Shown one piece after another: positions 1 through 49,296 of a DNA stretch of 64,000 bases; position 1 is the first letter of the stretch, and every line of letters begins with the position of its first letter. The notes under the pieces were generated by a model, which worked only from the letters and a program-made list of their open reading frames with translations, was not told where the DNA came from and did not search any database. Source of the stretch: Deltaproteobacteria bacterium HGW-Deltaproteobacteria-2 (GTDB lineage Bacteria > Desulfobacterota > Syntrophia > Syntrophales > Smithellaceae). The DNA lies in the NCBI GenBank assembly GCA_002840505.1, contig PHBC01000002.1, forward strand, positions 517,544 through 581,543, written 5' to 3'. The translations under genes were made by a program, and so were the position numbers.

Positions 1-1244
1 TTGGCGCCGCTCCCGCTTAACGTGAGATTGTAGTAATTGTTGTTATGCACAGTTTGCGCCGCGCCGTTATAATTTACAGTGTTACCGTTTGCGGTTGCGG
101 TCAGCGTGGTGATGCCCGAAGTGCCACCGATATTGAGAATACCAGAGGTACCTTGAGTTACTCCGCCAGTTCCCGATAGGGCAGTACTTGCATTAATAGT
201 TCCGTTGTTAGTGAGTGTTGTACCGGTAACAGTAAGCAATGTTGCAGATGTCAATGTTCCGCTATTTGCATATGCCCCTGTGAATGTTGCTGTTGGAATT
301 ACAATAGCCGTTGTTCCACTTAAGGTTTTGTTTGTCCCACTAAAAGTATGTGTTCCGGTATTTGCCGTAAAAGTGGTTGCGTTGTTGGTCAGGCTCCCGG
401 CAAAGTTAATCGCCGCAGCGCCGGTTTCATTCCAGACACCACCGGAATTAATTGTTACATCTCCGGTAAAGGTCTTGGTGGCAGTATTGGCAAGGGTTAA
501 CGTGCCGGTAACTGAAGTTGCACCGGCAACAGAAAGCGTCCAGGTATTTGTAGAGCCGGTGGAAAAAGTTGCTCCGGAGTTCACAGTCAGATTGTTGTTG
601 ATAGTTAAAGCTCTGCTCATCGTCGTGGTATTACTGGCGATGATCAGGTTGTAAAATGAAGTGAATATCGTACTGGGGAGAGTATTGGTTCCGGTGAGTT
701 GAACCGTTCCGGTTCCGGGTGTCCAATTTAATGTCGCTCCTGATGTGTTAAGCGCAAGACCACTGGTGATAAGTGTTCCACCGTTACTCATGTTGAGGGT
801 GGCACTTGATATGATGCAACCCCGTCCAAGTGTTGTTGTACCAGTCACCGTAACTTGAGAACCGCTATTGAAACTCAGTGTTGTGGCGAAACACCACGCT
901 GCGTTTGGACCAACTGAAAGGGTGGAAGCATTATAAGTTCCATCTACGGTTATTGAATACGAGCCCACGATTTCAACAGTGTCAGCGGATGTTGGCACGT
1001 GTCCGCATGACCAGTTTCCAGCTGTACTCCAATTGCCGGTCGTATCCGATTGGCACGTCGCCGCGTAAACATTTTCACTCAACGTAAACAGCCAGATAAG
1101 CGACACGAAAAGCACGAATATGGAGAATCGTCTACTTATAACATTTCTGCTCTTTTCATGACTTAAGATTCCGCTCTCGACAGGGGATTGAAACAGTTGC
1201 CGTTCCTGTAAAGAACAATTTTCAGATTCGTGGTTTTTCGTCAT
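1..1244 (-). CDS. Secreted beta-helix / 'beta strand repeat' adhesin-like protein, N-terminal part (gene continues beyond the left edge)
   Basis: The minus-strand frame is open from ATG 1244-1242 (GGAG about 7 nt upstream) to the window edge. It is absent from the ORF track because it has no stop here. My translation gives a hydrophobic anchor/signal (FSIFVLFVSLIWLFTLSENVYA). It is followed by Thr/Gly/Asn/Ser-rich degenerate repeats (…GTLTLANTATKTFTGDVTINSGG…, …NYYNLTLSGSGA), typical of parallel beta-helix surface proteins. The Val-rich + ORF 205-654 is its antisense shadow. Confidence 0.6.
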   Translation of the reverse strand, partial: MTKNHESENCSLQERQLFQSPVESGILSHEKSRNVISRRFSIFVLFVSLIWLFTLSENVYAATCQSDTTGNWSTAGNWSCGHVPTSADTVEIVGSYSITVDGTYNASTLSVGPNAAWCFATTLSFNSGSQVTVTGTTTLGRGCIISSATLNMSNGGTLITSGLALNTSGATLNWTPGTGTVQLTGTNTLPSTIFTSFYNLIIASNTTTMSRALTINNNLTVNSGATFSTGSTNTWTLSVAGATSVTGTLTLANTATKTFTGDVTINSGGVWNETGAAAINFAGSLTNNATTFTANTGTHTFSGTNKTLSGTTAIVIPTATFTGAYANSGTLTSATLLTVTGTTLTNNGTINASTALSGTGGVTQGTSGILNIGGTSGITTLTATANGNTVNYNGAAQTVHNNNYYNLTLSGSGA

Positions 1245-1705
1245 TGGATCACTCCGATTTTGCATTTATCTGTTCCAGCCTCTTAAACTTTTATAATCAT
1301 TAATTAAATTGATAGTTTAGTGCATTTTTTATACCAAGGCAACTACTATATTTCCCTATTTAAATCTAATTTAAATTAGCAAGTAATATCATAGATATAC
1401 GTTTGTTAAACGCCTGCGTATCAATACCTCTGGCAATCAATAAAATCGCCAAATGGTTTTTTTACATCATAATATGTAGATTCATCTACAAATACTGTTA
1501 GTTGCGGTAAATCATTGAATTTATCGTAAAAGATTTGTTCGGTGGAATATGGGATAAATTAAAAGAAGGATATGGAAATATCTCTTTATTCCGGCACAGT
1601 CTCATCCGCCTGTGTTCTCTACAAGATACAAAAAAATCTTAATCGAAATGTTCAATCCAATTGAACGAAAATATGAAGAAGATTCATCTTCCTTTTGCAC
1701 GGTGC

Positions 1706-4471
1706 TTAATCAGCGTCGGGAAAAGTAAAAAGAACTGTTCTCTCTGCCTGTTTCTGCGCGGGAGCGTTTTGATCGGCACTGTTTTCCTGATATAAATCCT
1801 TCGGTATTACGGTTTTTATTCGCTTATCACCGTCGGTTTCTTTTTGAACACCTTTTTGTGATAGTGGCGTCTGAACAGAAGGTATTGAAATAGAGGTTTT
1901 TGAAACAACGCATTGAATTTCTCCCAGATCGGTAATAGTTTCTCCTGCCTCGGTAAATGTAACGGTAAACCCGCATTTGCCGCCCTCATAATCCACAGTG
2001 GCGCTATAGGTGCCCGGCAAGATTGTATTTCCACCTGATTTTCTTAGTTTCGCGATAGCGCTGCAACTCTGGTTATTCTGGCTATCGGCAGCATCTGCGT
2101 TCGTTTCTGCGGATAGGCTGTTTTCAATATAAAATTCCCCTCCTTTTCCAGTGGGGTACGACAAATTCTTTTCACCTGTTTTCATGGATATTTCTACAAA
2201 TTCCAGCGGTTCTTTTTTCCCTTCTTTTTGCACAACCAGTGTTCCTGTGAGCGCCCGAACCTGCCGTGCGTCGAAGTAAACGCAGGAACCGCTCCATAAC
2301 GAAGGCGAGATCGACTTGTTCACGTCGGATATACTGTAATCGATCGGAATATTTTTTGTATCGAGCGTGATCTTGTTTTGGCCGTAGGAAGCAAGTGTCG
2401 GCACAACCATTGTACCGGAAGAACTTGCTTTTCCAATCTCCTGACCATTATTGAGCACCGCGGCCCCAGGCACTTCTTTATTAAGCACCACGATGCTGAA
2501 ACTATCGCTGACCGGCCGCGAGAAACCAAAAAATCCTCCGGTATACACAAGCGATCCGGCGGCTGAAAAATTATACGATTCGGTAGTTGTACCGGCGGTG
2601 TTCTGCATGGTGGCATCAACAGAATAGATGCCGTATTTGGCATTATACTGAACATAGGGATTGAACGCGGTTGTTGTATTTGTCGCAGTTTCGGAACGAT
2701 TGAGGGAAGCACGATAGCCGACACCTTCCCCGACGGGTACGTCTTTTTGTATTTGCAGAGTTTCCGAATTAACGTCGCCGCTGCCGGCGCTTGCTTGTGC
2801 GGAACCCCGAATACCCTTACCCAGATCAAAGTTGAGACCGACATAACAACTGTAAGTTGTATTCTTCGTTGTATCGGTGGTTGTATGGGTAACCGAACCG
2901 GTCGCAAAGAGGCTGATTGATTTGTAGAGCGTTCGGGAATAGTTTAGAGAAATGACGCGCGTATCAACACCCTTGAACGTTGCGGACTCCGCGTAATTGA
3001 CAGAAAAACTCCCCAGAGGATTCAGCAGTAAACCCGCTCCCACGTTCATTTCCAGTTGATTGCTGTCAGCCGTTTGCAGGGGATTGCCGACGGTCGCGTA
3101 GTCCCGGGAATATCCACGCAACAGAGCATTCGTGTTGAAACTGCCGAGCTGATAGGAATGCTGGAGTGATACTGCTCCTCCCAAATCGTTGCCGCTTGCG
3201 GAACTTCCGGCAAGAGACATAGTCAACTGGCCCAACTGGGGAATGGCAAATGCCGCGTATAGTCCGCCGTTATAGACACCATCAGAATCTTCTGTCCGCA
3301 CTCCGATATTAAAGTTATTAGTTACGCCGTAGCGATGGAACGCGGAAAAGGCGGCGTTGCCATAATCATCGCTTGCGATTCCATAATTGTTCCGCATTAA
3401 ACCAACATGATAACTGTACTCGTGCAGACCCTGCCGCAGCATTTGAGCACTAAAATACGCCAGATAGGAAATTTTCTGCACATTGCCAAAGGGATCTTTA
3501 AGCAAGACTTCAACATTATGGGAACCGGAGGATGAGTAAATATTTTTTAAATCGAACGACCCGGGCGTAATGGTCTGTTTCCCTATCAGTATGCCGTCCA
3601 GATAGATTTCTGCCTGAGTAGGAAAAATGACCGATCCCCTTAGGTCCATAACCGGCTGGGTTATGAAATAGGGGTCAAGCCTGTAAACCTTCGAAAAACC
3701 GATGCCTCCCATGTTGACGGTACTGCCCAGATCTCCGGAGTTGGCATACTGATCTCCCATTACTAACCACTGGAGATCACCCCGGCGCTCGTAGGTGGCG
3801 CTGCTCTGAAGCCGCGCGAAATTATCGCCGGTTGGTGTTTTCGTATAGACGGAATCGGAAGTAAGAAAAACGTCCCCGGTCCTGAAGCCCACTTTGTTTG
3901 TAACCGCAAAGGACTTAAACCCGTCGGTGTTCGTATAAATATAGTTCAGCCCGTAATTGACAAAGGCGCTCGTCTCCTGCGGATAATAGATATTCTTGGC
4001 CGCCGCCCGAAGTGAAAAAAGATCGGCGGCAGTTTTTCCGGATTCCGTGGTTTTGCCGATGATCGCAACGGTTAGTTTGTTCTCATCGAAAGTGTAAGTA
4101 ACGTCGAGCAGAGCGCTCAGAGGAACGTACTGCTCGTCCCCGCGTATGATGTTGATCCGATCTTCGGCGTATTGCAGTTTCAGGGTTTTTAAATCTTCCA
4201 CCCGGATGAACAACTTTTGCTCATTGTCGAGTTCGACAAAGAAATCTCCCTTTGATTCCGTGTTAACAATGACATTCACAACTATCTGAGTTGTGTCTTT
4301 CTGTGAGGCAGGAACAGCCGCGCCATTTTTGGGCTTCTCCTTATCGGATGTGGCTGTTGTTGAAACAGTAGTTTGATCAACATTTTTTTCATCCGCCGGA
4401 AATGCGGAATTAGTAAAAAAGGAAATAAATAAGATTATCGCAAGGATAAAAAAAAATAAACCTTCGTTCAA
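1706..4471 (-). CDS. Outer-membrane fimbrial usher (PapC/FimD/CsuD-like) of the SCPU chaperone-usher system
   Basis: A large beta-rich ORF (982 aa in the track). The N-terminal segment VIVNTESKGDFFVELDNEQKLFIRVEDLKTLKL and the plug-like AEIYLDGILIGKQTITPGSFDLKNIY resemble usher domains. It lies directly downstream of a PapD-like chaperone and SCPU subunits. The first ~60 codons of the track ORF (to 4654) read through two GC-rich palindromes. An in-frame TTG at 4471 precedes a signal-like NEGLFFFILAIILFISFFTNSAFPA, so the start is placed there; the start remains uncertain. Confidence 0.8.
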   Translation of the reverse strand: MNEGLFFFILAIILFISFFTNSAFPADEKNVDQTTVSTTATSDKEKPKNGAAVPASQKDTTQIVVNVIVNTESKGDFFVELDNEQKLFIRVEDLKTLKLQYAEDRINIIRGDEQYVPLSALLDVTYTFDENKLTVAIIGKTTESGKTAADLFSLRAAAKNIYYPQETSAFVNYGLNYIYTNTDGFKSFAVTNKVGFRTGDVFLTSDSVYTKTPTGDNFARLQSSATYERRGDLQWLVMGDQYANSGDLGSTVNMGGIGFSKVYRLDPYFITQPVMDLRGSVIFPTQAEIYLDGILIGKQTITPGSFDLKNIYSSSGSHNVEVLLKDPFGNVQKISYLAYFSAQMLRQGLHEYSYHVGLMRNNYGIASDDYGNAAFSAFHRYGVTNNFNIGVRTEDSDGVYNGGLYAAFAIPQLGQLTMSLAGSSASGNDLGGAVSLQHSYQLGSFNTNALLRGYSRDYATVGNPLQTADSNQLEMNVGAGLLLNPLGSFSVNYAESATFKGVDTRVISLNYSRTLYKSISLFATGSVTHTTTDTTKNTTYSCYVGLNFDLGKGIRGSAQASAGSGDVNSETLQIQKDVPVGEGVGYRASLNRSETATNTTTAFNPYVQYNAKYGIYSVDATMQNTAGTTTESYNFSAAGSLVYTGGFFGFSRPVSDSFSIVVLNKEVPGAAVLNNGQEIGKASSSGTMVVPTLASYGQNKITLDTKNIPIDYSISDVNKSISPSLWSGSCVYFDARQVRALTGTLVVQKEGKKEPLEFVEISMKTGEKNLSYPTGKGGEFYIENSLSAETNADAADSQNNQSCSAIAKLRKSGGNTILPGTYSATVDYEGGKCGFTVTFTEAGETITDLGEIQCVVSKTSISIPSVQTPLSQKGVQKETDGDKRIKTVIPKDLYQENSADQNAPAQKQAERTVLFTFPDAD

Positions 4472-4486
4472 CGCATTCGAAGGAAG

Positions 4487-4547
4487 TGTCCCCCGCCGGC
4501 GGGGGATCAAGGAGTATGCGCTTTGCGTGTCCCCCGCTGGCGGGGAT
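4487..4547. repeat. Two direct copies of a ~21-bp GC-rich palindromic hairpin element between the chaperone and usher genes
   Basis: GTGTCCCCCGCCGGCGGGGGAT (4487-4508) and GTGTCCCCCGCTGGCGGGGAT (4527-4547). Each contains a near-perfect palindrome (CCCCCGCC/GGCGGGGG). They stand out sharply in AT-rich surroundings. Confidence 0.7.
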
Positions 4548-4657
4548 AGGGGGTGGACGTTAATGTCGCCGTAATTCTCACCCAATTTATGAGTGCAAAG
4601 TCCTTTATCCACCTTCGTCACTGCGCGACACCTCCGCCAGCGGAGGATACGCAAAGA

Positions 4658-5458
4658 TTATTGTGCGCACATGTTTTTCTGAACATTCAGTGTCCCGTTG
4701 ATATTGCTGCTTTCTGTTTGAGCGCTCACCTCGATCGTCGCCAGTTGTCCACATATCTCTTTCGGGACGGCCGCTTCGTACGGAATTGACAGGCCGTTGA
4801 GGATATACCAGCCGGCAACTTCCTTGGTGTACATTTCCTTTCCGGCAGCGGTTTTTCCGCCGAACTTAACGGTGCGCAATTTAATATGAACATTTCCTGT
4901 GTTTTTAACAATCGCCTTCACCGCGCCGTTGGACATTTCGATCTTTTCTAAGACATAGCTCTCCTGTGGCTGTAGAGGCTTAACGAATATCGGCATCGCG
5001 AACCGAAACGCTATCGTGAGCCCTGCCTTTATGTTCTTATTAGCCTCCACGTCAGTTGTCTTTTTCGATGTGGGAATCTCTTCAACGAAAAGGCGATAAG
5101 TCTTTTCCTTGGCGGAGGGTGGGGTCTTGAGGCCTATTCTGACTGCCCGCTGCGAGTTCGCTTCCACGCTCATGATCTTTGGGTGAAAAACTATTTCCTT
5201 CGTGTCCCCATACACATCCTTGCCTTTTTCGTCCTGATTCCACTCTTTAACCGATACTTGAAAATCAACTTTGTCGCCGCCGTTATTGATTACGGAGAAA
5301 ACGCCGCTCTTTACATTGCGGCCCAAGTCCATAGTCGTCGGCTGTACCTGAAAATTAGCGAAGGCAGGAGAAATGAATATGGCCACAAACAACAAACTGG
5401 CAACCAATCCTACGCATTTATTTATTGATGCCTTAAACCCGCGAAAAATGTTCTTCAT
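4658..5458 (-). CDS. Periplasmic fimbrial chaperone (PapD/CsuC-like)
   Basis: 266 aa with a signal peptide (…LLFVAIFISPAFA). It shows the PapD-like pattern FQVQPTTMDLGRNVKSGVFSVINNGGDKVDFQVSV and two beta-sandwich-sized halves. It sits between the pilin genes and the usher. Confidence 0.8.
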   Translation of the reverse strand: MKNIFRGFKASINKCVGLVASLLFVAIFISPAFANFQVQPTTMDLGRNVKSGVFSVINNGGDKVDFQVSVKEWNQDEKGKDVYGDTKEIVFHPKIMSVEANSQRAVRIGLKTPPSAKEKTYRLFVEEIPTSKKTTDVEANKNIKAGLTIAFRFAMPIFVKPLQPQESYVLEKIEMSNGAVKAIVKNTGNVHIKLRTVKFGGKTAAGKEMYTKEVAGWYILNGLSIPYEAAVPKEICGQLATIEVSAQTESSNINGTLNVQKNMCAQ

Positions 5459-5526
5459 GCCTTATCTCCATTTCTTAATTGAAATTTTTTATTCTTCACT
5501 ATTAAAGTTGTATACCAAAAAACCGC

Positions 5527-6552
5527 TTAATAGCTAATCGTTAATGTTATCGTGTCACTATACGTGCCCGCCGGCGCGTCGTTAAGGGCTCCGGCAGGAA
5601 TAGAAGGTGTCAGCGCTAAATTACCAGTTCCACTACCACCTATGCTAATCGTATCGCCCTTACCGGTAATGGGGGTCGTATAGATAATATTATAAGCGAT
5701 ATAATCGCTTGTGCCATGTAAAAGCCTGTACCCCGTACCCATATTTGTTCCGCCATTAGCACCGGCAGCTGTAACAGCATACGTGTTCCCGGCAGCAGTA
5801 CAATAAATGACCGGTTTGGTTGTTACAAGTGCTTCCGAGGCTGCAACTCCTCCGGCATTTGCAACTGCGTTAAGAGTGCCGAAATCTATCACTCCGTTAC
5901 CACCCGTATGGCATCCCCTTGCGGAATTGACCGTGAGACTGTAAGTGGCGGAGGCTTGCGATCCGTTGACATCCGTCACTGTAACCGTAAAACTAAAAGG
6001 TCCTGAAACCTGCGGTATTCCTGTAATCGTAATTGAGGTGCCCGAAGTGCTGCTCAGGTTAAGCCCGGGGGGAAGATTCGTGGCTGTCCAAGAGTACGGG
6101 GTCGTCCCTCTGTCCGCTGTCAAAACAGCAGATGTTGTATATGATTGATACTGAGTCGCATTAGTAGAGAATGTGCCGCTCGTGAGCGTAAGGCGAATGG
6201 CACGATTGATCACAAGGGTGTACGCGCAGGTCGGATCGATGCCGGCCTCGTAATGTCTTATCGAAAGGTTGTAAGTACCCTGTGAGTTTCCAGCCAGCGA
6301 ACCCGACAGATCAACTGAATTAATATAGTTATTATGTAAACTCAGGCCGTTCGGATACCAGCAAAACAAACAGTACCAACCTGGGGTTTGATTCCCGTTG
6401 GTACCAGTAAAGGTGTACAAATAGGGTCTCCCCACTGTACCTTGCGGGAGCGTTCCCGGGCACGTAATTGCAGCATAAGCAGTGCTGATCAGCCCTGTCA
6501 GCAATAATGAAATAATAATATATCCTGCTTTCAGATTCTTACGCTTCATCAA
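5527..6552 (-). CDS. SCPU-domain pilus subunit with two N-terminal Ig-like (He_PIG-type) domains; candidate adhesin
   Basis: 341 aa with a signal peptide. It contains two segments with the 'putative Ig' pattern: LPQGTVGRPYLYTFTGTNG… and TTPYSWTATNLPPGLNLSSTSGTSITITGIPQVSGPFSFTVTVTDVNGSQASATYSLTV. A pilin domain follows, ending GTYSDTITLTISY like the two SCPU subunits upstream. Confidence 0.75.
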   Translation of the reverse strand: MMKRKNLKAGYIIISLLLTGLISTAYAAITCPGTLPQGTVGRPYLYTFTGTNGNQTPGWYCLFCWYPNGLSLHNNYINSVDLSGSLAGNSQGTYNLSIRHYEAGIDPTCAYTLVINRAIRLTLTSGTFSTNATQYQSYTTSAVLTADRGTTPYSWTATNLPPGLNLSSTSGTSITITGIPQVSGPFSFTVTVTDVNGSQASATYSLTVNSARGCHTGGNGVIDFGTLNAVANAGGVAASEALVTTKPVIYCTAAGNTYAVTAAGANGGTNMGTGYRLLHGTSDYIAYNIIYTTPITGKGDTISIGGSGTGNLALTPSIPAGALNDAPAGTYSDTITLTISY

Positions 6553-6566
6553 ATGAATGCCTTAAT

Positions 6567-6616
6567 AAAAAACGCAGCCTTCTGCAATCATCCTTTTTCA
6601 GGCAAACAGGCTGCGT
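6567..6616 (-). terminator. Putative intra-operon attenuator/terminator hairpin after the second SCPU gene
   Basis: An 8-bp GC-rich stem ACGCAGCC (6572-6579) / GGCTGCGT (6609-6616). An A-run at 6567-6571 gives a U-run after the hairpin on the minus-strand transcript. The loop is large (29 nt). Confidence 0.4.
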
Positions 6617-6646
6617 CAACAAATTAAAGAGTTGCCGTTTTTCAAA

Positions 6647-7177
6647 CTAATACGAAAGAGTCAATGTAACCATGTCCGAATAGTCGGTATGGGCAATAGC
6701 GGCCTGTGCGTCTGCCGCCGGAACCTTTATGCTGATACCCATAGCCCGCGCGGTAGTGTATCCCGCACCCGTAAAATGGCCCGTGCCTCCGGTGTCGCCG
6801 GCGCACATAAAGGTGTACGCGATTGCGTCTGCCGGCCAACTTATGGATCTGAGCGCCATTCCGCTGACACCACCGGATGTGCAGGTCTGATTAACGGCGG
6901 TTCCGTTGGCGCTGGACACATTAACCGTAAAGACTACGCCGTTGGTGCACTTCACCAATTCATCGGCAGTCGGTGAAAAGTTCTGATCCGCCGCCGACTG
7001 TGAATCAATAGTTAGCGGATTCGGGAACGAGCCATGCTGGGCCTCCATGCACGATGCTCCTATCTGCGCACTCACCGTCACGGTCGTACTTGCAAATCCC
7101 GAAGGAGTTGCCGCAAACGCACCTGTTGTTATGCTAATGGCAGCAAATGCTGCCACTAGCCATAATATCTTCTTCAA
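6647..7177 (-). CDS. SCPU (spore coat protein U / Csu-type) pilus subunit
   Basis: 176 aa with a signal peptide (…ISITTGAFA). The N-terminal strand is TTVTVSAQIGASCME and the C-terminal strand DYSDMVTLTLSY. This is the same architecture as the neighbouring subunits. Confidence 0.8.
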   Translation of the reverse strand: MKKILWLVAAFAAISITTGAFAATPSGFASTTVTVSAQIGASCMEAQHGSFPNPLTIDSQSAADQNFSPTADELVKCTNGVVFTVNVSSANGTAVNQTCTSGGVSGMALRSISWPADAIAYTFMCAGDTGGTGHFTGAGYTTARAMGISIKVPAADAQAAIAHTDYSDMVTLTLSY

Positions 7178-7227
7178 GGACGATCACCACTCGTTTGATT
7201 AAATTCCCGTTAACAATTGGCCATAAA

Positions 7228-7710
7228 TTAATAGGAAAGCGTTAACACTAAAGTGTCTGAATAGTTTCCTGCTATAACGCCTTCAGCAGCTGAATGAGTA
7301 ACGGTGCCTGTAAGACTTAATAATCCGGTACCCTTGGCACCTATATTAGTACCAGCCGCTCCATCGCCTGTCAGCGGTGTATTATAGTCGATAGAGTACG
7401 GTAGTTTTGTTGTCGTGCCACCATCCATAAATAGATTTTTTCCTGACCCACCATTCAGCCCTCCATCGTTGGTAATCGCAACGCTGGTACCTTTAGTACA
7501 TTGAATCGAGATTCCTCCGGCAGCATCAACAGTTACGTCCACCCCGTCTGCATTGACCGTTCCGAACGGTAATGTCCCGCCATGAACATTACAAATCGAT
7601 GTAACAGTAGCTGTTGCGTTCACGCTAACAGTTGCTTGCGCCGCAAACGCTCCACTTACCATGGCAATAACCATCATCATCGCCGCCAATAGTACTAAAT
7701 ACTTTTTCAT
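7228..7710 (-). CDS. SCPU (spore coat protein U / CsuA/B-type) pilus subunit, probable major subunit
   Basis: 160 aa with an RBS AAGGAGA before the ATG and a signal peptide (…AMVSGAFA). It has ATVSVNATATVTSICNV … GNYSDTLVLTLSY. It is the first gene of the operon. Confidence 0.8.
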   Translation of the reverse strand: MKKYLVLLAAMMMVIAMVSGAFAAQATVSVNATATVTSICNVHGGTLPFGTVNADGVDVTVDAAGGISIQCTKGTSVAITNDGGLNGGSGKNLFMDGGTTTKLPYSIDYNTPLTGDGAAGTNIGAKGTGLLSLTGTVTHSAAEGVIAGNYSDTLVLTLSY

Positions 7711-7879
7711 AATTTTCTCCTTTTGTTTGAGTAAATATTATTTTTAATAAATCAAAGTTTTTACAATAATTTAGTCCTGCAGGGTAAACCAAGCACAGGG
7801 ATTTCCCGACAGGGTGGATGCTTTGAGCTTCATTCATCCTAAAACTTCATACTTTTTTGTTACAAATTTTGGCGTTCTG

Positions 7880-7913
7880 AGAACGTACCGGACTGCACAG
7901 AAAACGTACTGGA
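7880..7913. promoter_or_regulatory. Two 13-bp direct repeats upstream of the chaperone-usher operon (candidate regulator binding sites)
   Basis: AGAACGTACCGGA (7880-7892) and AAAACGTACTGGA (7901-7913) share 11/13 identity and their starts are 21 bp apart. The first overlaps the palindrome GTTCT-G-AGAAC (7875-7885). The sites lie ~170-200 bp upstream of the first SCPU gene. Confidence 0.3.
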
Positions 7914-8104
7914 TTAGACAATTGGCACTCGTGTAGTAAAAAAGATCAACTTTGTCAAGCAAAAAGAAGAAGTGTTCATGATGGTTTTTATCAATATTTT
8001 TAATTATTTATGTGAAATTAATTTCACTTTTATTATAGATACAATCAAAGGCTAAAAAATGGCATCAATTAAAGATGAAAATGTTCTCTTATTTAAAGCT
8101 GATA

Positions 8105-8593
8105 TTATGTCAGGTAGGTTTGAAGTGTTTTATAACTCTTAAAATCAGCATCAACGAAGGCGGCTCCGACATGAATGCCGTCTTCTTCATCAAACACTCT
8201 ATTGGACTCACAGGTCAACTTTATGGGCTTGTTCTCAACAGGCAAATTGAAAACAACCTCAAATCTTGAGTTTTGCTCATCAATACGGATATGTTGCTTG
8301 AAATCCTTGGGAATTAAAATTCTTACACCGCCAAGAGAAATATTTGTGATGGTTACTATTCCCATTTTTTCAAGCTCCGGTTGATTAATCACGGCTGAAA
8401 CAAAAAGATCCTTTCTCGGATAATGACGTTTTTCTTTTTCAACACTTGGAAATGCTTTCCTCTCTTTCAGGTAACTGTTCAGGACATTTTCAATCGTTGA
8501 AGATAATGACCGCCTGTCTTCTTTTGCAACTCGAGCCAGGGCTTTATGCAAAGCCTTGCTGGCACGAAAACATATGAGGCTTTCTTTTTTCAT
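8105..8593 (-). CDS. Ribbon-helix-helix (CopG/Arc-like) :: PilZ domain fusion protein; predicted c-di-GMP-responsive DNA-binding protein
   Basis: 162 aa. The N-terminus, SLICFRASKALHKALARVAKEDRRSLSSTIENVLNSYL, fits a beta-strand plus two helices of the RHH fold. The C-terminal half carries both PilZ c-di-GMP motifs: RxxxR (RHYPR) and D/NxSxxG (NISLGG). Confidence 0.8.
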   Translation of the reverse strand: MKKESLICFRASKALHKALARVAKEDRRSLSSTIENVLNSYLKERKAFPSVEKEKRHYPRKDLFVSAVINQPELEKMGIVTITNISLGGVRILIPKDFKQHIRIDEQNSRFEVVFNLPVENKPIKLTCESNRVFDEEDGIHVGAAFVDADFKSYKTLQTYLT

Positions 8594-8706
8594 GATTTAT
8601 TGCTTTCCTTATATAGCGCGTGCACGTTTATACCATACAAAATTACTATATTTAACACGAAGTCGAATTTGATTTGGGGCGGTTGTTGCCTTTTTGTATG
8701 TCACTA

Positions 8707-9831
8707 CTACTCCACAGGGTTTACGGAAATGGAAAGAGGCCACGCATAAGTTCCCGCCTGCGAAGACTCGTCAAAAACAAAACGATAGTTTAACGCTACT
8801 ACGGACGTGCCAACGATTTGACGAGTGATAATCCCGCCGTTGGGCCCGAGCGCAACTTCCCTGCCAAAACCATTCACTAGCGCTTCTTTAAAAGGCAATC
8901 CGTGAGTTTCGAAGGTCATATTAACTCCCGCCCTGCTGTTATTTTTGATTTCCAGAAGAGAACCAACATTTACATCGAGATATCCTCTTTTTATATCGGC
9001 ATCGGTTACAACGATTTCCGCCTGTTGTCTTAGCACATGCACGCTGGCCCGCGCCAGAACTCTCGCGGTCACCGATATCTGCGTACTCATCACCTGCTTA
9101 GATGACTGCGCGGCAATCGCTGCACTAATAGGCGCAAGAGACAGGGCCGCGATCAACGCCGCCGCAACAAGCTTTTCCTGTATCCTGAGGCCATGATCGA
9201 TATGGCGCTGTTTGGCATAGCCGGCTTCAACCAGCACTTCGCCGATTTTCTTTCCGCTTTCGCTTTCGTGCTGACGTTTCAGTCCGTCTTCAAGCTGTTC
9301 ATGTGTGATGTATCCGGCGGAAATAAGCAGTTCTCCCAGCATCAGACAGGAAGGAATCTTTCTTTCGCCCAGCCGGGATTGAAAGGACAAAGTGACATCT
9401 AGTTGACGCTTATCGAGGAAACCAAGGCGCACTAAAATCTCGCCCAGTTTTTCGCCTGATTTTTTCTGTTCATCAAGCGCAGTATCGAGCTGATTCTGCG
9501 TGATGCAGAAAGCCTTCAACAGCAGTTCACCCAACAAGTGACGAATGCCGGCGGCCGCCATAATCGCTTCTTTGACCGTCGAAAAATCACGCTGAATCCA
9601 CAGTACAGCATAAAGCTCAGCTTTATCCAACGCGCCAAGATCAACCAGGATATCACCCAAGAGCTTATTTGTGCGCATTTGCTCCGCAAGAGCGGCATCA
9701 AGAGCTTCAGGCTCTATAAACGCGCCATCCAGCAGAATACGTCCCAGCGGACGCTTGACAGGCAGAGAATAACGGATATTTTCCTGCAATTTCTGCTTTT
9801 CTACACCTTTGTACTTTTTTGTAACCACCAC
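8707..9831 (-). CDS. Membrane protein with three tandem MshEN-like (T2SSE_N) c-di-GMP-binding motif pairs, one TM helix and a periplasmic beta-rich domain
   Basis: 374 aa with a GTG start preceded by AAGGGGG. It has six ~24-aa LGxxLVxxGxxxxxxLxxxLxxQ motifs in three pairs. A TM helix (LVAAALIAALSLAPISAAIAA) and a ~135-aa beta-rich C-terminal domain follow. There is no ATPase domain. Confidence 0.65.
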   Translation of the reverse strand: MVVTKKYKGVEKQKLQENIRYSLPVKRPLGRILLDGAFIEPEALDAALAEQMRTNKLLGDILVDLGALDKAELYAVLWIQRDFSTVKEAIMAAAGIRHLLGELLLKAFCITQNQLDTALDEQKKSGEKLGEILVRLGFLDKRQLDVTLSFQSRLGERKIPSCLMLGELLISAGYITHEQLEDGLKRQHESESGKKIGEVLVEAGYAKQRHIDHGLRIQEKLVAAALIAALSLAPISAAIAAQSSKQVMSTQISVTARVLARASVHVLRQQAEIVVTDADIKRGYLDVNVGSLLEIKNNSRAGVNMTFETHGLPFKEALVNGFGREVALGPNGGIITRQIVGTSVVALNYRFVFDESSQAGTYAWPLSISVNPVE

Positions 9832-12201: not shown

Positions 12202-12414
12202 GAAAAAGACAAGATACACCGCATAGTCTCATCAAGAGAAATGTTCCCAGGCATTTTAAAAATGTATTAATTTCAACAACTTTATTAACTGAATGTTAAC
12301 CGTAATCTCTAAAAACCTGATAATTTCAATTTTCACTCTAAAAACAATCAATTCTCACTAATCAAAAAGCTATCGCAGTTGATCAATCATTGTTGATTTT
12401 TTTCATAATATCTC

Positions 12415-12443
12415 TTGACTTTAGTAGTTGTTTTACTTAAAAT
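12415..12443 (+). promoter_or_regulatory. Sigma70-type promoter for the riboswitch/minor-pilin transcript
   Basis: TTGACT (12415-12420), a 17-bp spacer, then TAAAAT (12438-12443). This places the transcription start just before the riboswitch aptamer. Confidence 0.55.
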
Positions 12444-12449
12444 ATAAGT

Positions 12450-12555
12450 GAAAGCTTGATAAAGGCAAACCGTTCTGAAAAGACGGGACGCAAAGTTACT
12501 GACCTAAGTCTTAATTGTAAGATAGGGTGGCAGAACAGCCGGGCGACTCTAATAA
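12450..12555 (+). promoter_or_regulatory. c-di-GMP-I (GEMM-I) riboswitch
   Basis: …AAAGGCAAACCGUUCUGAAAAGACGGGACGCAAAGUUACUGACCUAAGUC…GAUAGGGUGGCAGAACAGCCGGGCGACU. It matches the GEMM-I core seen in V. cholerae Vc2 (GGCAAACC-hairpin with GAAA tetraloop-GGGACGCAAAG). The second hairpin carries a tetraloop-receptor-like CCUAAG…AUAGG. The element lies ~135 nt upstream of the first minor pilin gene. Confidence 0.85.
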
Positions 12556-12688
12556 GTAGTCCTGCATATCTGCGGAATAAATCCCTAAACAATTAAAGAC
12601 AAAACGAAAAGTATTGAATGTAAACGTTTTGATATGTGTTGAAGGGAAACAGATATTTCCTTTACGCGCCTGCAAATGAGGGGACAGT

Positions 12689-13159
12689 ATGATAAGGACA
12701 AACATTCCAAAAGGTTATACGCTAGTTGAAGTCTGCATCGTAATCGCCTTGCTGGCCATCATATCGACTTTGGCTATTCCTGCCTGGCAGAACTATTCGT
12801 CCAACATCAATTTAAAAACAGCCGCAAGAGAAGTAATGTCTGATCTTCTCAACGCAAGGCAGCGGGCAATTGAAGAGAATCTCAGTACTTACCGTATCAC
12901 TTTTAATGTGGGTGAAAACAATTATACCCTTTCACGTACCGACACCGGAATTACATACTGGACAAAACCATTAACATCTTACGGAAGTGGCATTTCCATA
13001 CAGAGCGTCAACTTTAATAACGGTTCCGTAGTTAGTTTTCAAAGACGTGGAACAGTAACAATGGGAAACTTGGTCCTGACAAACCTAATAGGATCAAAGG
13101 CTACCATTACTGTCCAAATAACAGCGAGAACGTATGTACAGTATAATATGCAAAAATAA
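12689..13159 (+). CDS. Type IV minor pilin, GspH/FimT-like (prepilin N-terminal methylation domain)
   Basis: MIRTNIPKG/YTLVEVCIVIALLAIISTLAIPAW shows a class III signal peptide with Glu at +5 and a hydrophobic alpha1-N helix. An RBS GAGGGGA lies upstream. Confidence 0.75.
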   Translation: MIRTNIPKGYTLVEVCIVIALLAIISTLAIPAWQNYSSNINLKTAAREVMSDLLNARQRAIEENLSTYRITFNVGENNYTLSRTDTGITYWTKPLTSYGSGISIQSVNFNNGSVVSFQRRGTVTMGNLVLTNLIGSKATITVQITARTYVQYNMQK

Positions 13160-17824: not shown

Positions 17825-17835
17825 CTGGTAGATCT

Positions 17836-17874
17836 TGGCGTGATGGGTGGCAAATGTCCCCATCACGCCAAGCG
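17836..17874 (+). terminator. Long perfect hairpin downstream of pilY1 (terminator-like or REP-like)
   Basis: CTTGGCGTGATGGG - 11-nt loop - CCCATCACGCCAAG forms a 14-bp perfect stem 12 nt after the stop. No clear U-tract follows. Confidence 0.45.
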
Positions 17875-32489: not shown

Positions 32490-32891
32490 CTATTTTGCTG
32501 CCGGGGTTACCACCAACGTACCATTGGTAACAGTATAGACTGCATTAGGTGTACCCAAACCCCAGTTTGCGGAACCGGCACATGTAATAACGAAATTACT
32601 CTCGTTAGTCCAACTACCAACTGTAGTTGATACATCGGAAGACTGAGAATATCCGCCAACTGTTAAATCTGTGGTTCCTACTGTTACACCGCTATGATCA
32701 GCACTATAGGCGATAGCGGCAGTGTAAGCATTTTTACAATCACTATTGATGGTGGCAACATAGCCTCTTTTTCTATACTGTATGAACTGCGGAATAGCGA
32801 TAGCCGCCAGAATACCGATAATCGCGATAACGATCATCAACTCAATCAACGTGAAACCTTTCTGTCCTTCTTTACGGAAAATTTTTAACAT
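32490..32891 (-). CDS. pilA: Type IV major pilin (PilA-like)
   Basis: MLKIFRKEGQKG/FTLIELMIVIAIIGILAAIAIPQFIQYRKRGY is a canonical prepilin leader and alpha1 helix. It is 133 aa with two Cys in the C-terminal half. A strong RBS AAAGGAGG lies upstream. Confidence 0.85.
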   Translation of the reverse strand: MLKIFRKEGQKGFTLIELMIVIAIIGILAAIAIPQFIQYRKRGYVATINSDCKNAYTAAIAYSADHSGVTVGTTDLTVGGYSQSSDVSTTVGSWTNESNFVITCAGSANWGLGTPNAVYTVTNGTLVVTPAAK

Positions 32892-33241
32892 AATAGACCT
32901 CCTTTTATAATAGTATTTTAATTTTTGTTGCTTGCCATGTTACTAATTAACTTTATTTTCCCTATCATACTTTATTTCTCCGACATCTTAAGTTACAGCA
33001 ACATATATGCCAAACACAGCAGACATATCGAATCCATCAATAAAAATATAATTTATTGTGTAAAATCAAAGACAAATATTTAATATGCATCTGGATGAAA
33101 GTAACTATAGATAAAGCCGCCTGCCAAAAAAGTGGTTATTTTCACCAAAACTACCGTGATTTCCACCTTCCACTAATTAATTATTCCCCCTCGTCATAAA
33201 ATATGATATTAATTACCAGTTTAAAATTAAAGAAGGTGGAA

Positions 33242-49158: not shown

Positions 49159-49170
49159 AAATCAGATTTT

Positions 49171-49271
49171 ACCCTTTTAATTTAATCCGGTGAGATTGAA
49201 AAAGGAAAACATAATGAAATGTTTATCAAGATATTATCAAGCCTTTCTCCTTTCGGGGGAAGGCTTTTTTT
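49171..49271 (+). promoter_or_regulatory. PyrR-type transcription attenuator (PyrR binding loop + intrinsic terminator)
   Basis: CUUUUAAUUUAAUCCGGUGAGAUUGAAAAAGG resembles the PyrR binding-loop consensus (…UCCAGAGAGGCU…). The terminator AAGCCTTTCTCC-TTTCG-GGGGAAGGCTT plus TTTTTTT follows at 49239-49271, just upstream of pyrR. Confidence 0.55.
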
Positions 49272-49296
49272 ATAACATTACCCGAGGTTGACACGT

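Follow-up and report, generated by a model that had tools for sequence, protein, structure and literature searches.

A class I c-di-GMP riboswitch ahead of a minor-pilin/PilY1 operon in Smithella, with a predicted anti-aptamer hairpin and a candidate OFF logic

The 64,000-nucleotide (nt) stretch analyzed here, hereafter the window, is taken from contig PHBC01000002.1 (positions 517,544 to 581,543 of the forward strand) of Deltaproteobacteria bacterium HGW-Deltaproteobacteria-2 (GCA_002840505.1), a Smithella genome that we abbreviate G000. It carries, one after the other on the same strand, a sigma-70-type promoter, a class I riboswitch aptamer for cyclic dimeric GMP (c-di-GMP-I, or GEMM-I), a leader, and five genes resembling fimT/gspH, pilV, pilW, pilX, and pilY1 (Table 1). 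By every feature that can be tested computationally, the RNA is a genuine, conserved but ordinary class I c-di-GMP riboswitch and a member of Rfam family RF01051. Our folding models leave us evenly balanced on the further proposition that it functions at the 5' end of the mRNA of this five-gene minor-pilin/PilY1 operon as an OFF switch.

Table 1. Features of the riboswitch locus, of its downstream operon, and of related pilin loci (window coordinates unless another locus is named)
Feature	Position	Strand	Evidence
Sigma-70-type promoter, TTGACT and TAAAAT with a 17-nt spacer	12415-12420, 12438-12443	+	Promoter scan, 10/12
c-di-GMP-I (GEMM-I) aptamer	12454-12543	+	RF01051, 64.5 bits, full model
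P1 5' strand GCTTG	12454-12458	+	Pairs with CGGGC 12540-12544; read from sequence
Aptamer string GGCAAACC	12464-12471	+	Read from sequence
GAAA tetraloop of first hairpin	12477-12480	+	RF01051 alignment
Aptamer string GGGACGCAAAG	12485-12495	+	Read from sequence
Tetraloop-receptor-like CCTAAG with TAGGG (ATAGG, 12522-12526)	12503-12508, 12523-12527	+	RF01051 alignment
P1 3' strand CGGGC	12540-12544	+	Overlaps innermost rung GGGC of alternative hairpin
3' arm of alternative (ligand-free) hairpin	12546-12600	+	Minimum free energy (MFE) folds, RNAalifold; predicted
Rung AGT with ACT (small apical stem)	12555-12557, 12546-12548		
Rung GTCC with GGGC (innermost rung)	12559-12562, 12541-12544		
Rung TCTGC with GCAGA	12569-12573, 12530-12534		
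Rung CCCTA with TAGGG	12583-12587, 12523-12527		
Rung ACAATT with AATTGT	12589-12594, 12513-12518		
Rung AAGAC with GTCTT	12596-12600, 12508-12512		
GAATG, degenerate B element TGTAAACG, and T-run	12616-12630	+	Ortholog alignment
Purine-rich "decoy"/pyrimidine-rich anti-SD hairpin GTGT-TGAAGGGAA ... TTTCCTTT-ACGC	12636-12667	+	Folding
Shine-Dalgarno (SD) sequence GAGGGGA and ATG of first minor pilin	12678-12684, 12689-12691	+	Read from sequence
FimT/FimU/GspH-like minor pilin, 156 aa, motif KG/YTLVE	12689-13159	+	PF12019 GspH and N_methyl
PilV-like minor pilin, 146 aa	13134-13574	+	TIGR02523, 5.2e-6 (sub-cutoff); N_methyl, 1.1e-3
PilW-like minor pilin, 232 aa	13565-14263	+	N_methyl, 2.5e-8; PilW name from gene order
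PilX-like protein, 161 aa	14247-14732	+	PilX_N, E = 0.016 (sub-cutoff); name from gene order
PilY1 tip protein, 1026 aa	14744-17824	+	PF05567, 3.5e-16; PDB 3hx6 (PilY1), 3.3e-18
Perfect GC-rich 14-bp hairpin (CTTGGCGTGATGGG...CCCATCACGCCAAG), no T-run	17833-17871	+	Read from sequence
Major-pilin-like open reading frame	32490-32939	-	Pilin-like sequence; 14.7 kb from pilY1 end
Sister minor-pilin cluster	L102 (G000:C10:188000-199500), 1018-8885; leader 8886-8993	-	pilD-dsbC-fimT-pilV-pilW-pilX-pilY1; no GEMM-I at E <= 1

Aptamer and ligand class

A scan of the window against 4227 Rfam covariance models returns a single riboswitch, an RF01051 match that covers model positions 1 to 87 of 87 and reaches 64.5 bits where the gathering score is 35 (E = 2.4e-10). 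This score is far beyond chance; the GEMM-I identity that an earlier note had read from the letters of this DNA therefore passes, by 30 bits, the covariance-model scan that the note itself had suggested. A genome-wide search reproduces the window result, with one GEMM-I copy in the 3.28-Mb genome, and finds no class II c-di-GMP riboswitch (RF01786). The RNA is built of two hairpins that meet at a junction, the first capped by a GNRA tetraloop and the second containing its receptor, and the hallmarks quoted previously (both strings, the GAAA tetraloop, and the receptor-like CCUAAG…AUAGG) all stand where they had been reported. The third receptor base is G in place of U, and paralogs within the genus have U, A, or G there. 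The short helix P1 is a predicted pairing outside the Rfam model; a distant relative (L003) has the P1 pair GUCC/GGAC in place of GCUU/GGGC.

Transferring the numbering of Vc2, the Vibrio cholerae type example of RF01051, to the Rfam alignment columns (a mapping of our own) places the equivalents of the ligand contacts G20, A47, and C92 at 12464, 12492, and 12539. The first is the unpaired G preceding the GC of GGCAAAC, the second the first A of GCAAAG, and the third the C following the last P2 pair, and all three are invariant across the 11 orthologous leaders described below. G20 marks c-di-GMP binders and discriminates against cyclic GMP-AMP (cGAMP), whose riboswitches have A at that position (PMC6140456). 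The contact bases thus indicate c-di-GMP, not cGAMP, as the ligand, because the specificity position is G rather than A. The genome codes for 15 GGDEF domains, and c-di-GMP can therefore be made in it.

The case for 3',3'-cGAMP or another dinucleotide as ligand comes from lineage, since Smithella belongs to the Desulfobacterota and the related Geobacter has GEMM-Ib riboswitches, one of them before pilM (PMC9262584). The pilM element of Geobacter metallireducens, a cGAMP-responsive transcriptional ON switch (PMC9262584), comes from a related lineage and, like ours, has a GEMM-I-type aptamer before type IV pilus genes, but it has A at the G20 position, acts by antitermination, and precedes the pilMNOPQ assembly genes and not minor pilins. 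Here the specificity position is G in this genome and in 11/11 orthologs, and A47 and C92 are canonical. We rejected cGAMP specificity on the missing GEMM-Ib adenine, and any such ligand seems to us scarcely credible.

Promoter, leader, and conservation

The near-consensus TTGACT-17-TAAAAT promoter proposed in the earlier note is confirmed as the best promoter-like site between 11.5 and 21 kb of the window, and both hexamers are invariant in six orthologs and in the metagenome copies. Transcription is predicted to start at about 12448 to 12451, roughly 4 to 6 nt ahead of the aptamer, and the aptamer, which lies 3' of the promoter and shares its strand with the downstream gene, is part of the 5' untranslated region. 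An internal site, TTGATA-17-GATATT (12629 to 12657), was discarded as probably a chance match because its region is not conserved in orthologs. Directly upstream of the -35 hexamer (12379 to 12398), we observe the palindrome TTGATCAA and a (T)TGAT motif that recurs, GTTGATCAATCATTGTTGAT, with partial conservation of the ATTGTTGAT portion in orthologs; this segment could be an operator or an UP element.

The leader spans 134 nt from the aptamer end (12543) to the SD, in line with the roughly 135 nt counted before, and 145 nt to the ATG. As the earlier note had suspected, no canonical intrinsic terminator is found on the plus strand in a terminator scan of 12544 to 12688. Several further elements occupy this leader. 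In other clades a CCYGCA motif occurs twice, once within the arm of the alternative hairpin discussed below (A) and once just before the SD (C), and an element B of the form TGYRGGC is complementary to both copies, always with a U-tract after it. In the present leader B is degenerate, and the GAATG beside it can pair with CATTC at 12703 to 12707, in the coding region. The decoy/anti-SD hairpin is conserved in the G000 clade, and a hairpin is present at the same place in all orthologs.

GEMM-I elements are present in 29 of 41 genomes of the genus and order, at one to six copies each (one in G000), and exact-pattern scans match the element in the metagenome-assembled genomes Smithella sp. SDB and Smithella sp. 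M82. In six other genomes of the genus, a GEMM-I stands immediately before a fimT-like gene; the leaders of G018, G008, G021, G007, and G005 align with the present one, and that of G022 is divergent. Metagenome contigs supply six further leader variants, and the ortholog set comprises 11 full-length distinct leaders and one partial leader. Promoter, aptamer, leader, and fimT are orthologous in five other Smithella genomes and six metagenome contigs. The aptamer and 55 nt of leader are nearly invariant even though the coding regions are only 53 to 78% identical across species, which argues for purifying selection on the RNA. This near invariance is difficult to reconcile with the aptamer being a conserved relic without regulation, the promoter alone driving the operon. 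A sister pilD operon in the same genome appears to have lost its aptamer, so that loss is tolerated; we nevertheless rate a relic as very improbable.

Most other GEMM-I copies of the genus precede the prepilin peptidase gene pilD, with a fimT-like gene about 1.1 kb further on. Their promoter and aptamer cassette is 80 to 89% identical to this one, and they share a post-aptamer hairpin (GGGCNAC/GTNGTCC), a CCWGCA element, and similar downstream genes with it. In contrast to the pilD type, in which pilD (often with dsbC) stands between riboswitch and minor pilins and the leader is about 75 nt, the present 145-nt leader is joined directly to fimT and has a strong loop-specific anti-P2b segment that most pilD-type copies do not have.

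Other arrangements of the aptamer are also observed. Tandem arrays of three or four GEMM-I aptamers with about 165-nt spacing (about 80 nt in G019) occur in other Smithella genomes (L008 in G016:C162; G005:C44:26031-26447; G049:C1:1357452-1357875; G046:C19:4211-4632; G019:C84:10217-10531), and the L008 array precedes a secreted-protein gene with its SD inside a CCUCCUUUUU/AAAAAAGGAGG hairpin. In the same order but another family, a GEMM-I of 78.4 bits (L006, G036:C264) is followed by a pilin-like gene (...RGFSMVEILIV...), and the link between riboswitch and pilin therefore reaches beyond the genus.

An alternative hairpin spanning aptamer and leader

Folded without constraints (RNAfold), every orthologous leader adopts an MFE structure in which the 3' half of the aptamer and the arm at 12546 to 12600 form one long hairpin, which is also the RNAalifold consensus of the 11 sequences. 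Across the alignment, 93.8% of the cells of this hairpin are paired, versus 37 to 51% for slid controls. Its 11-bp outer helix is paired in 100% of sequences, and the five one-sided changes found in it are all pairing-preserving wobbles. P1 (GCTTG:CGGGC) and the alternative hairpin are mutually exclusive, because P1 shares GGGC with the innermost rung. In the orthologs the alternative fold lies 8 to 20 kcal/mol below the aptamer-enforced fold; with c-di-GMP bound at a picomolar Kd (PMC6140456), we estimate this gap to be comparable with the free energy of ligand binding.

The pairing also appears to be specific to the aptamer that it opposes. Binding of the P2b segment to its own leader comes to -14.6 to -19.6 kcal/mol, versus about -11 kcal/mol for paralog leaders, and a specific anti-P2b complement is confined to the minor-pilin type and 2 of about 23 pilD-type copies. 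Two pilD-type paralogs, L040 and L045, have different P2b loops and matching complements. On the strength of conservation and structure prediction, the alternative hairpin is probably the core of the expression platform. A 19-nt conserved segment, CAAACAATTWAAGACAAAA, was also considered as a protein site shared with pilD-type leaders and was rejected: the shared part is explained by the common aptamer AAGUCUU and, in the pilD-type leaders, also by pairing with the early coding region.

This arrangement invites comparison with Vc2 (structures 3IRW and 3MXH), which belongs to the same aptamer family and has the same docking of a GNRA tetraloop in its receptor and the same G20/A47/C92 contacts. 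Both have a short P1 with a 3' strand shared with the expression platform and no terminator, so that control is thought to be translational. The gene context is not the same, however, the receptor is UAGGG here and not UAUGG, 134 nt separate aptamer and SD here, and the competing structure is predicted to include the P2b stem-loop and receptor as well as P1, about 28 pairs.

Direction of regulation

In the model that we favor, transcription would start ahead of the aptamer as predicted above, and during the next ~55 nt of synthesis the aptamer would either capture c-di-GMP and lock into the docked fold (P1 plus tetraloop-receptor contact) or be unzipped. Unzipping would proceed rung by rung, as the arm pairs along the entire 3' half of the aptamer, taking apart the P2b stem-loop, the receptor, the P2a 3' strand, and the P1 3' strand, leaving the long alternative hairpin. 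An aptamer closed on its ligand would leave the pyrimidine-rich arm (GUCCU..., UCUGC, UCCCU) free, and the freed arm could then pair with the purine-rich ribosome-binding region GCAAAUGAGGGGAC. Because of this potential pairing, our best guess is that high c-di-GMP would lower translation initiation, making the element an OFF switch. This direction, with its SD-capture step, is put forward tentatively, at even confidence or a shade below it.

The model is consistent with the behavior of the orthologs in silico. Enforcing the aptamer raises SD pairing with the released arm in 7 of 11 orthologs and lowers it in none (from 0 to 0.13 in G000, 0.04 to 0.37 in L065, 0 to 0.59 in L067, 0 to 0.73 in L069, 0.41 to 0.70 in G021, and 0 to 0.22 in G007, with only a marginal rise, 0.24 to 0.27, in G018), and on average the paired fraction of the SD increases from 0.40 to 0.52. 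The clade to which this window belongs shows the effect most distinctly (L065, L067, L069), but in G000 itself it is weak; the arm of G000 forms a duplex of -15.5 kcal/mol with the translation initiation region (z = -1.8 versus shuffles).

Several observations weigh against SD capture and against the hairpin on which it depends. Among the 11 orthologs, no pair of this hairpin has changed on both sides in a compensatory way, and the aptamer side is almost invariant, so that the support consists of conservation and wobble-tolerant changes, not of true covariation. The complementarity of the arm to the SD region is just marginally above that of shuffled arms. SD accessibility shifts little in G000 (0.42 to 0.39 unpaired), is almost unchanged in G018, and is unchanged in G008, G005, L070, and L071; equilibrium SD accessibility was thus rejected as a decisive readout, the differences being too small or absent in 4 to 5 of 11 orthologs. 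Equilibrium modeling of 23 pilD-type leaders is no more decisive, with SD pairing increased in 8, decreased in 1, and unchanged in the rest. The models for G018 and G008 bury the start codon, in the free and the bound state alike, in the U-tract:AUGAAAAG and GAAUG:CAUUC helices, and a bound-state A:B helix would break the latter, which suggests ON logic. A relay through the decoy hairpin, in which UCCCU captures AGGGA and frees UUUCCUUU for the SD, is seen in the MFE fold of G000; it was set aside as not general because the hairpin is closed in both states in L067 and L069.

Such ON logic would have the ligand-free RNA hide the start region in a closed domain (B:C, GAAUG:CAUUC, and in some species U-tract:AUGAAAAG), and in the bound state the freed A element would pair with B, block the closing helices, and open the start site. 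In nascent transcripts ending at B, A:B indeed forms only with the aptamer enforced (p = 0.86-1.0 in G018, G021, G007, G005, and L071), and it shares the GAAUG segment with the closing helix. For G018 and G008 the predicted pairing of the AUG is 0.97-1.0, and GAAUG/CAUUC complementarity is retained in 10 of 11 orthologs, wobble changes included. A precedent is Cdi2_4 of Clostridioides difficile, a riboswitch before pilA1 through which high c-di-GMP activates pilus genes. It too places type IV pilus genes under direct c-di-GMP control, but it is an ON switch of the c-di-GMP-II class (RF01786) and serves a major pilin cluster. In the clade of this window, however, B is degenerate and A:B does not form, while in equilibrium models bound-state SD accessibility rises in 0 of 11 orthologs and the AUG becomes less paired in L069 only. 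CATTC moreover is part of the coding sequence and may be conserved on account of the protein. We regard an ON switch as rather unlikely.

Shut-off could also be transcriptional, either with the same A:B helix and the U-tract as an unusual long-loop intrinsic terminator or pause, or with the exposed A-rich, G-poor leader recruiting Rho or RNase E. A U-rich tract follows B in 11/11 orthologs despite diverging flanks (tails UUUUUAUGC, UUUUCGCAU, UUGUUUAGC, and others), and A and B covary (CCUGCA/UGUAGG versus CCCGCA/UGCGGG, with a U-G intermediate in L071). A:B is predicted in the bound state only, and the layout parallels the P-A-T-H arrangement of Cd1 of C. difficile, a c-di-GMP-I transcriptional OFF switch of the flagellar operon (PMC9262584). 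The resemblance to Cd1 extends to a GEMM-I ahead of a surface-appendage operon, to a chain of mutually exclusive helices (aptamer, switching, and downstream strands), and, on the preferred translational OFF reading, to a ligand that reduces expression. Cd1 has a compact intrinsic terminator, however; here there is only A:B with the U-tract, degenerate in this genome, where B is minus its two G's and the stem would amount to 5 weak pairs. The A:B loop comprises 45 to 50 unstructured nt, which is poor for termination, the terminator scan of the leader is empty, and in several species the U-tract is alternatively explained by pairing with AUGAAAAG. None of our results favors Rho. Transcriptional shut-off is, in our judgment, quite unlikely.

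The regulated operon and its sister

The five genes are tightly packed, with overlaps of 10 to 26 nt or an 11-nt gap. The first four carry consecutive class III prepilin signals, KG/YTLVE, KG/ISLVE, and KG/YTLVE in genes 1 to 3, which also have Pfam N_methyl, and GG/FSLVV, without Glu5, in gene 4; a PilY1 gene follows, as in operons of the fimU-pilVWXY1 type, in which PilY1 has a C-terminal beta-propeller. The first gene also matches prepilin-peptidase-dependent protein families. The FimT/PilV/PilW/PilX/PilY1 operon proposed earlier behind the riboswitch is thus recovered, with PilY1 well matched and the individual names PilV, PilW, and PilX resting on weak matches (PilV and PilX) and gene order. 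The description of the last protein as a vWA-PilY1 is well supported for PilY1 and weakly for vWA: its N terminus has a visible DxSxS...T...D motif resembling a metal ion-dependent adhesion site and matches the vWA end of Mg-chelatase D below threshold (E = 0.014), and Pfam VWA gives no match there even at E <= 1. Nine nt past the pilY1 stop codon lies a 14-bp hairpin that the terminator scan did not pick up; it is a probable 3' end structure of the operon and may act as a Rho-independent-like 3' end or as an mRNA stabilizer. The major pilin, previously placed about 15 kb away, corresponds to a pilin-like reading frame on the opposite strand at nearly that distance.

A sister operon in the same genome and contig reads pilD-dsbC-fimT-pilV-pilW-pilX-pilY1 (PilY1, 1387 aa). 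No GEMM-I is detected there even at E <= 1; its 108-nt pilD leader retains the pilD-type platform tail (CAGCAAATCTGC ... TAACAAATTTAAC) without an aptamer, which appears to have been deleted. One of two minor-pilin/PilY1 sets therefore remains riboswitch linked in this genome. The earlier view that the regulated unit is specifically the minor pilins plus PilY1 holds in this lineage and not elsewhere, since most Smithella have pilD and then the minor pilins. Given that the second operon has no aptamer, control of one of two alternative tip sets by c-di-GMP is more likely than control of pilus priming in itself.

Neighboring features

Between a chaperone-usher pilus operon and the type IV operon described here, 2.6 kb ahead of the riboswitch, the minus strand (8707 to 9831) encodes a protein with three MshEN-type c-di-GMP-binding motifs (NF053729, 7e-45). 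Further along the plus strand, at 49169 to 49273, the window contains a PyrR binding-site attenuator (RF00515, 58.2 bits, gathering score 54) with a terminator hairpin and U-tract.

Biological significance

Smithella are uncultured or poorly cultured syntrophs, and contact with their partners may depend on pili. Full-text literature searches turned up neither a c-di-GMP riboswitch described ahead of a minor-pilin/PilY1 operon nor any paper on riboswitches of Smithella. This analysis adds a predicted anti-aptamer hairpin that engages the receptor, a riboswitch joined to fimT with no pilD in between, and the apparent loss of the aptamer from the sister operon. The gain is incremental, because the RNA class and its link to pili and motility are already well established. 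The predicted hairpin nonetheless offers a testable design variant for GEMM-I expression platforms.

In its fullest form, the proposal would have one 55-nt arm, an unusually extensive anti-aptamer, unzip the P2b loop, receptor, P2a, and P1 together or, once c-di-GMP locks the aptamer, serve as anti-SD instead, with c-di-GMP shutting one of two tip sets and neighboring c-di-GMP sensors governing the chaperone-usher pilus; this combination we consider doubtful. Across the genus, a c-di-GMP riboswitch is attached to prepilin peptidase/minor-pilin/PilY1 genes, and here to one of two sets. Its placement would link c-di-GMP to pilus priming and tip choice, not to the supply of major pilin. If true, the shutting off of one tip set by c-di-GMP would amount to a second-messenger choice of the adhesive tip or appendage that this syntroph displays.

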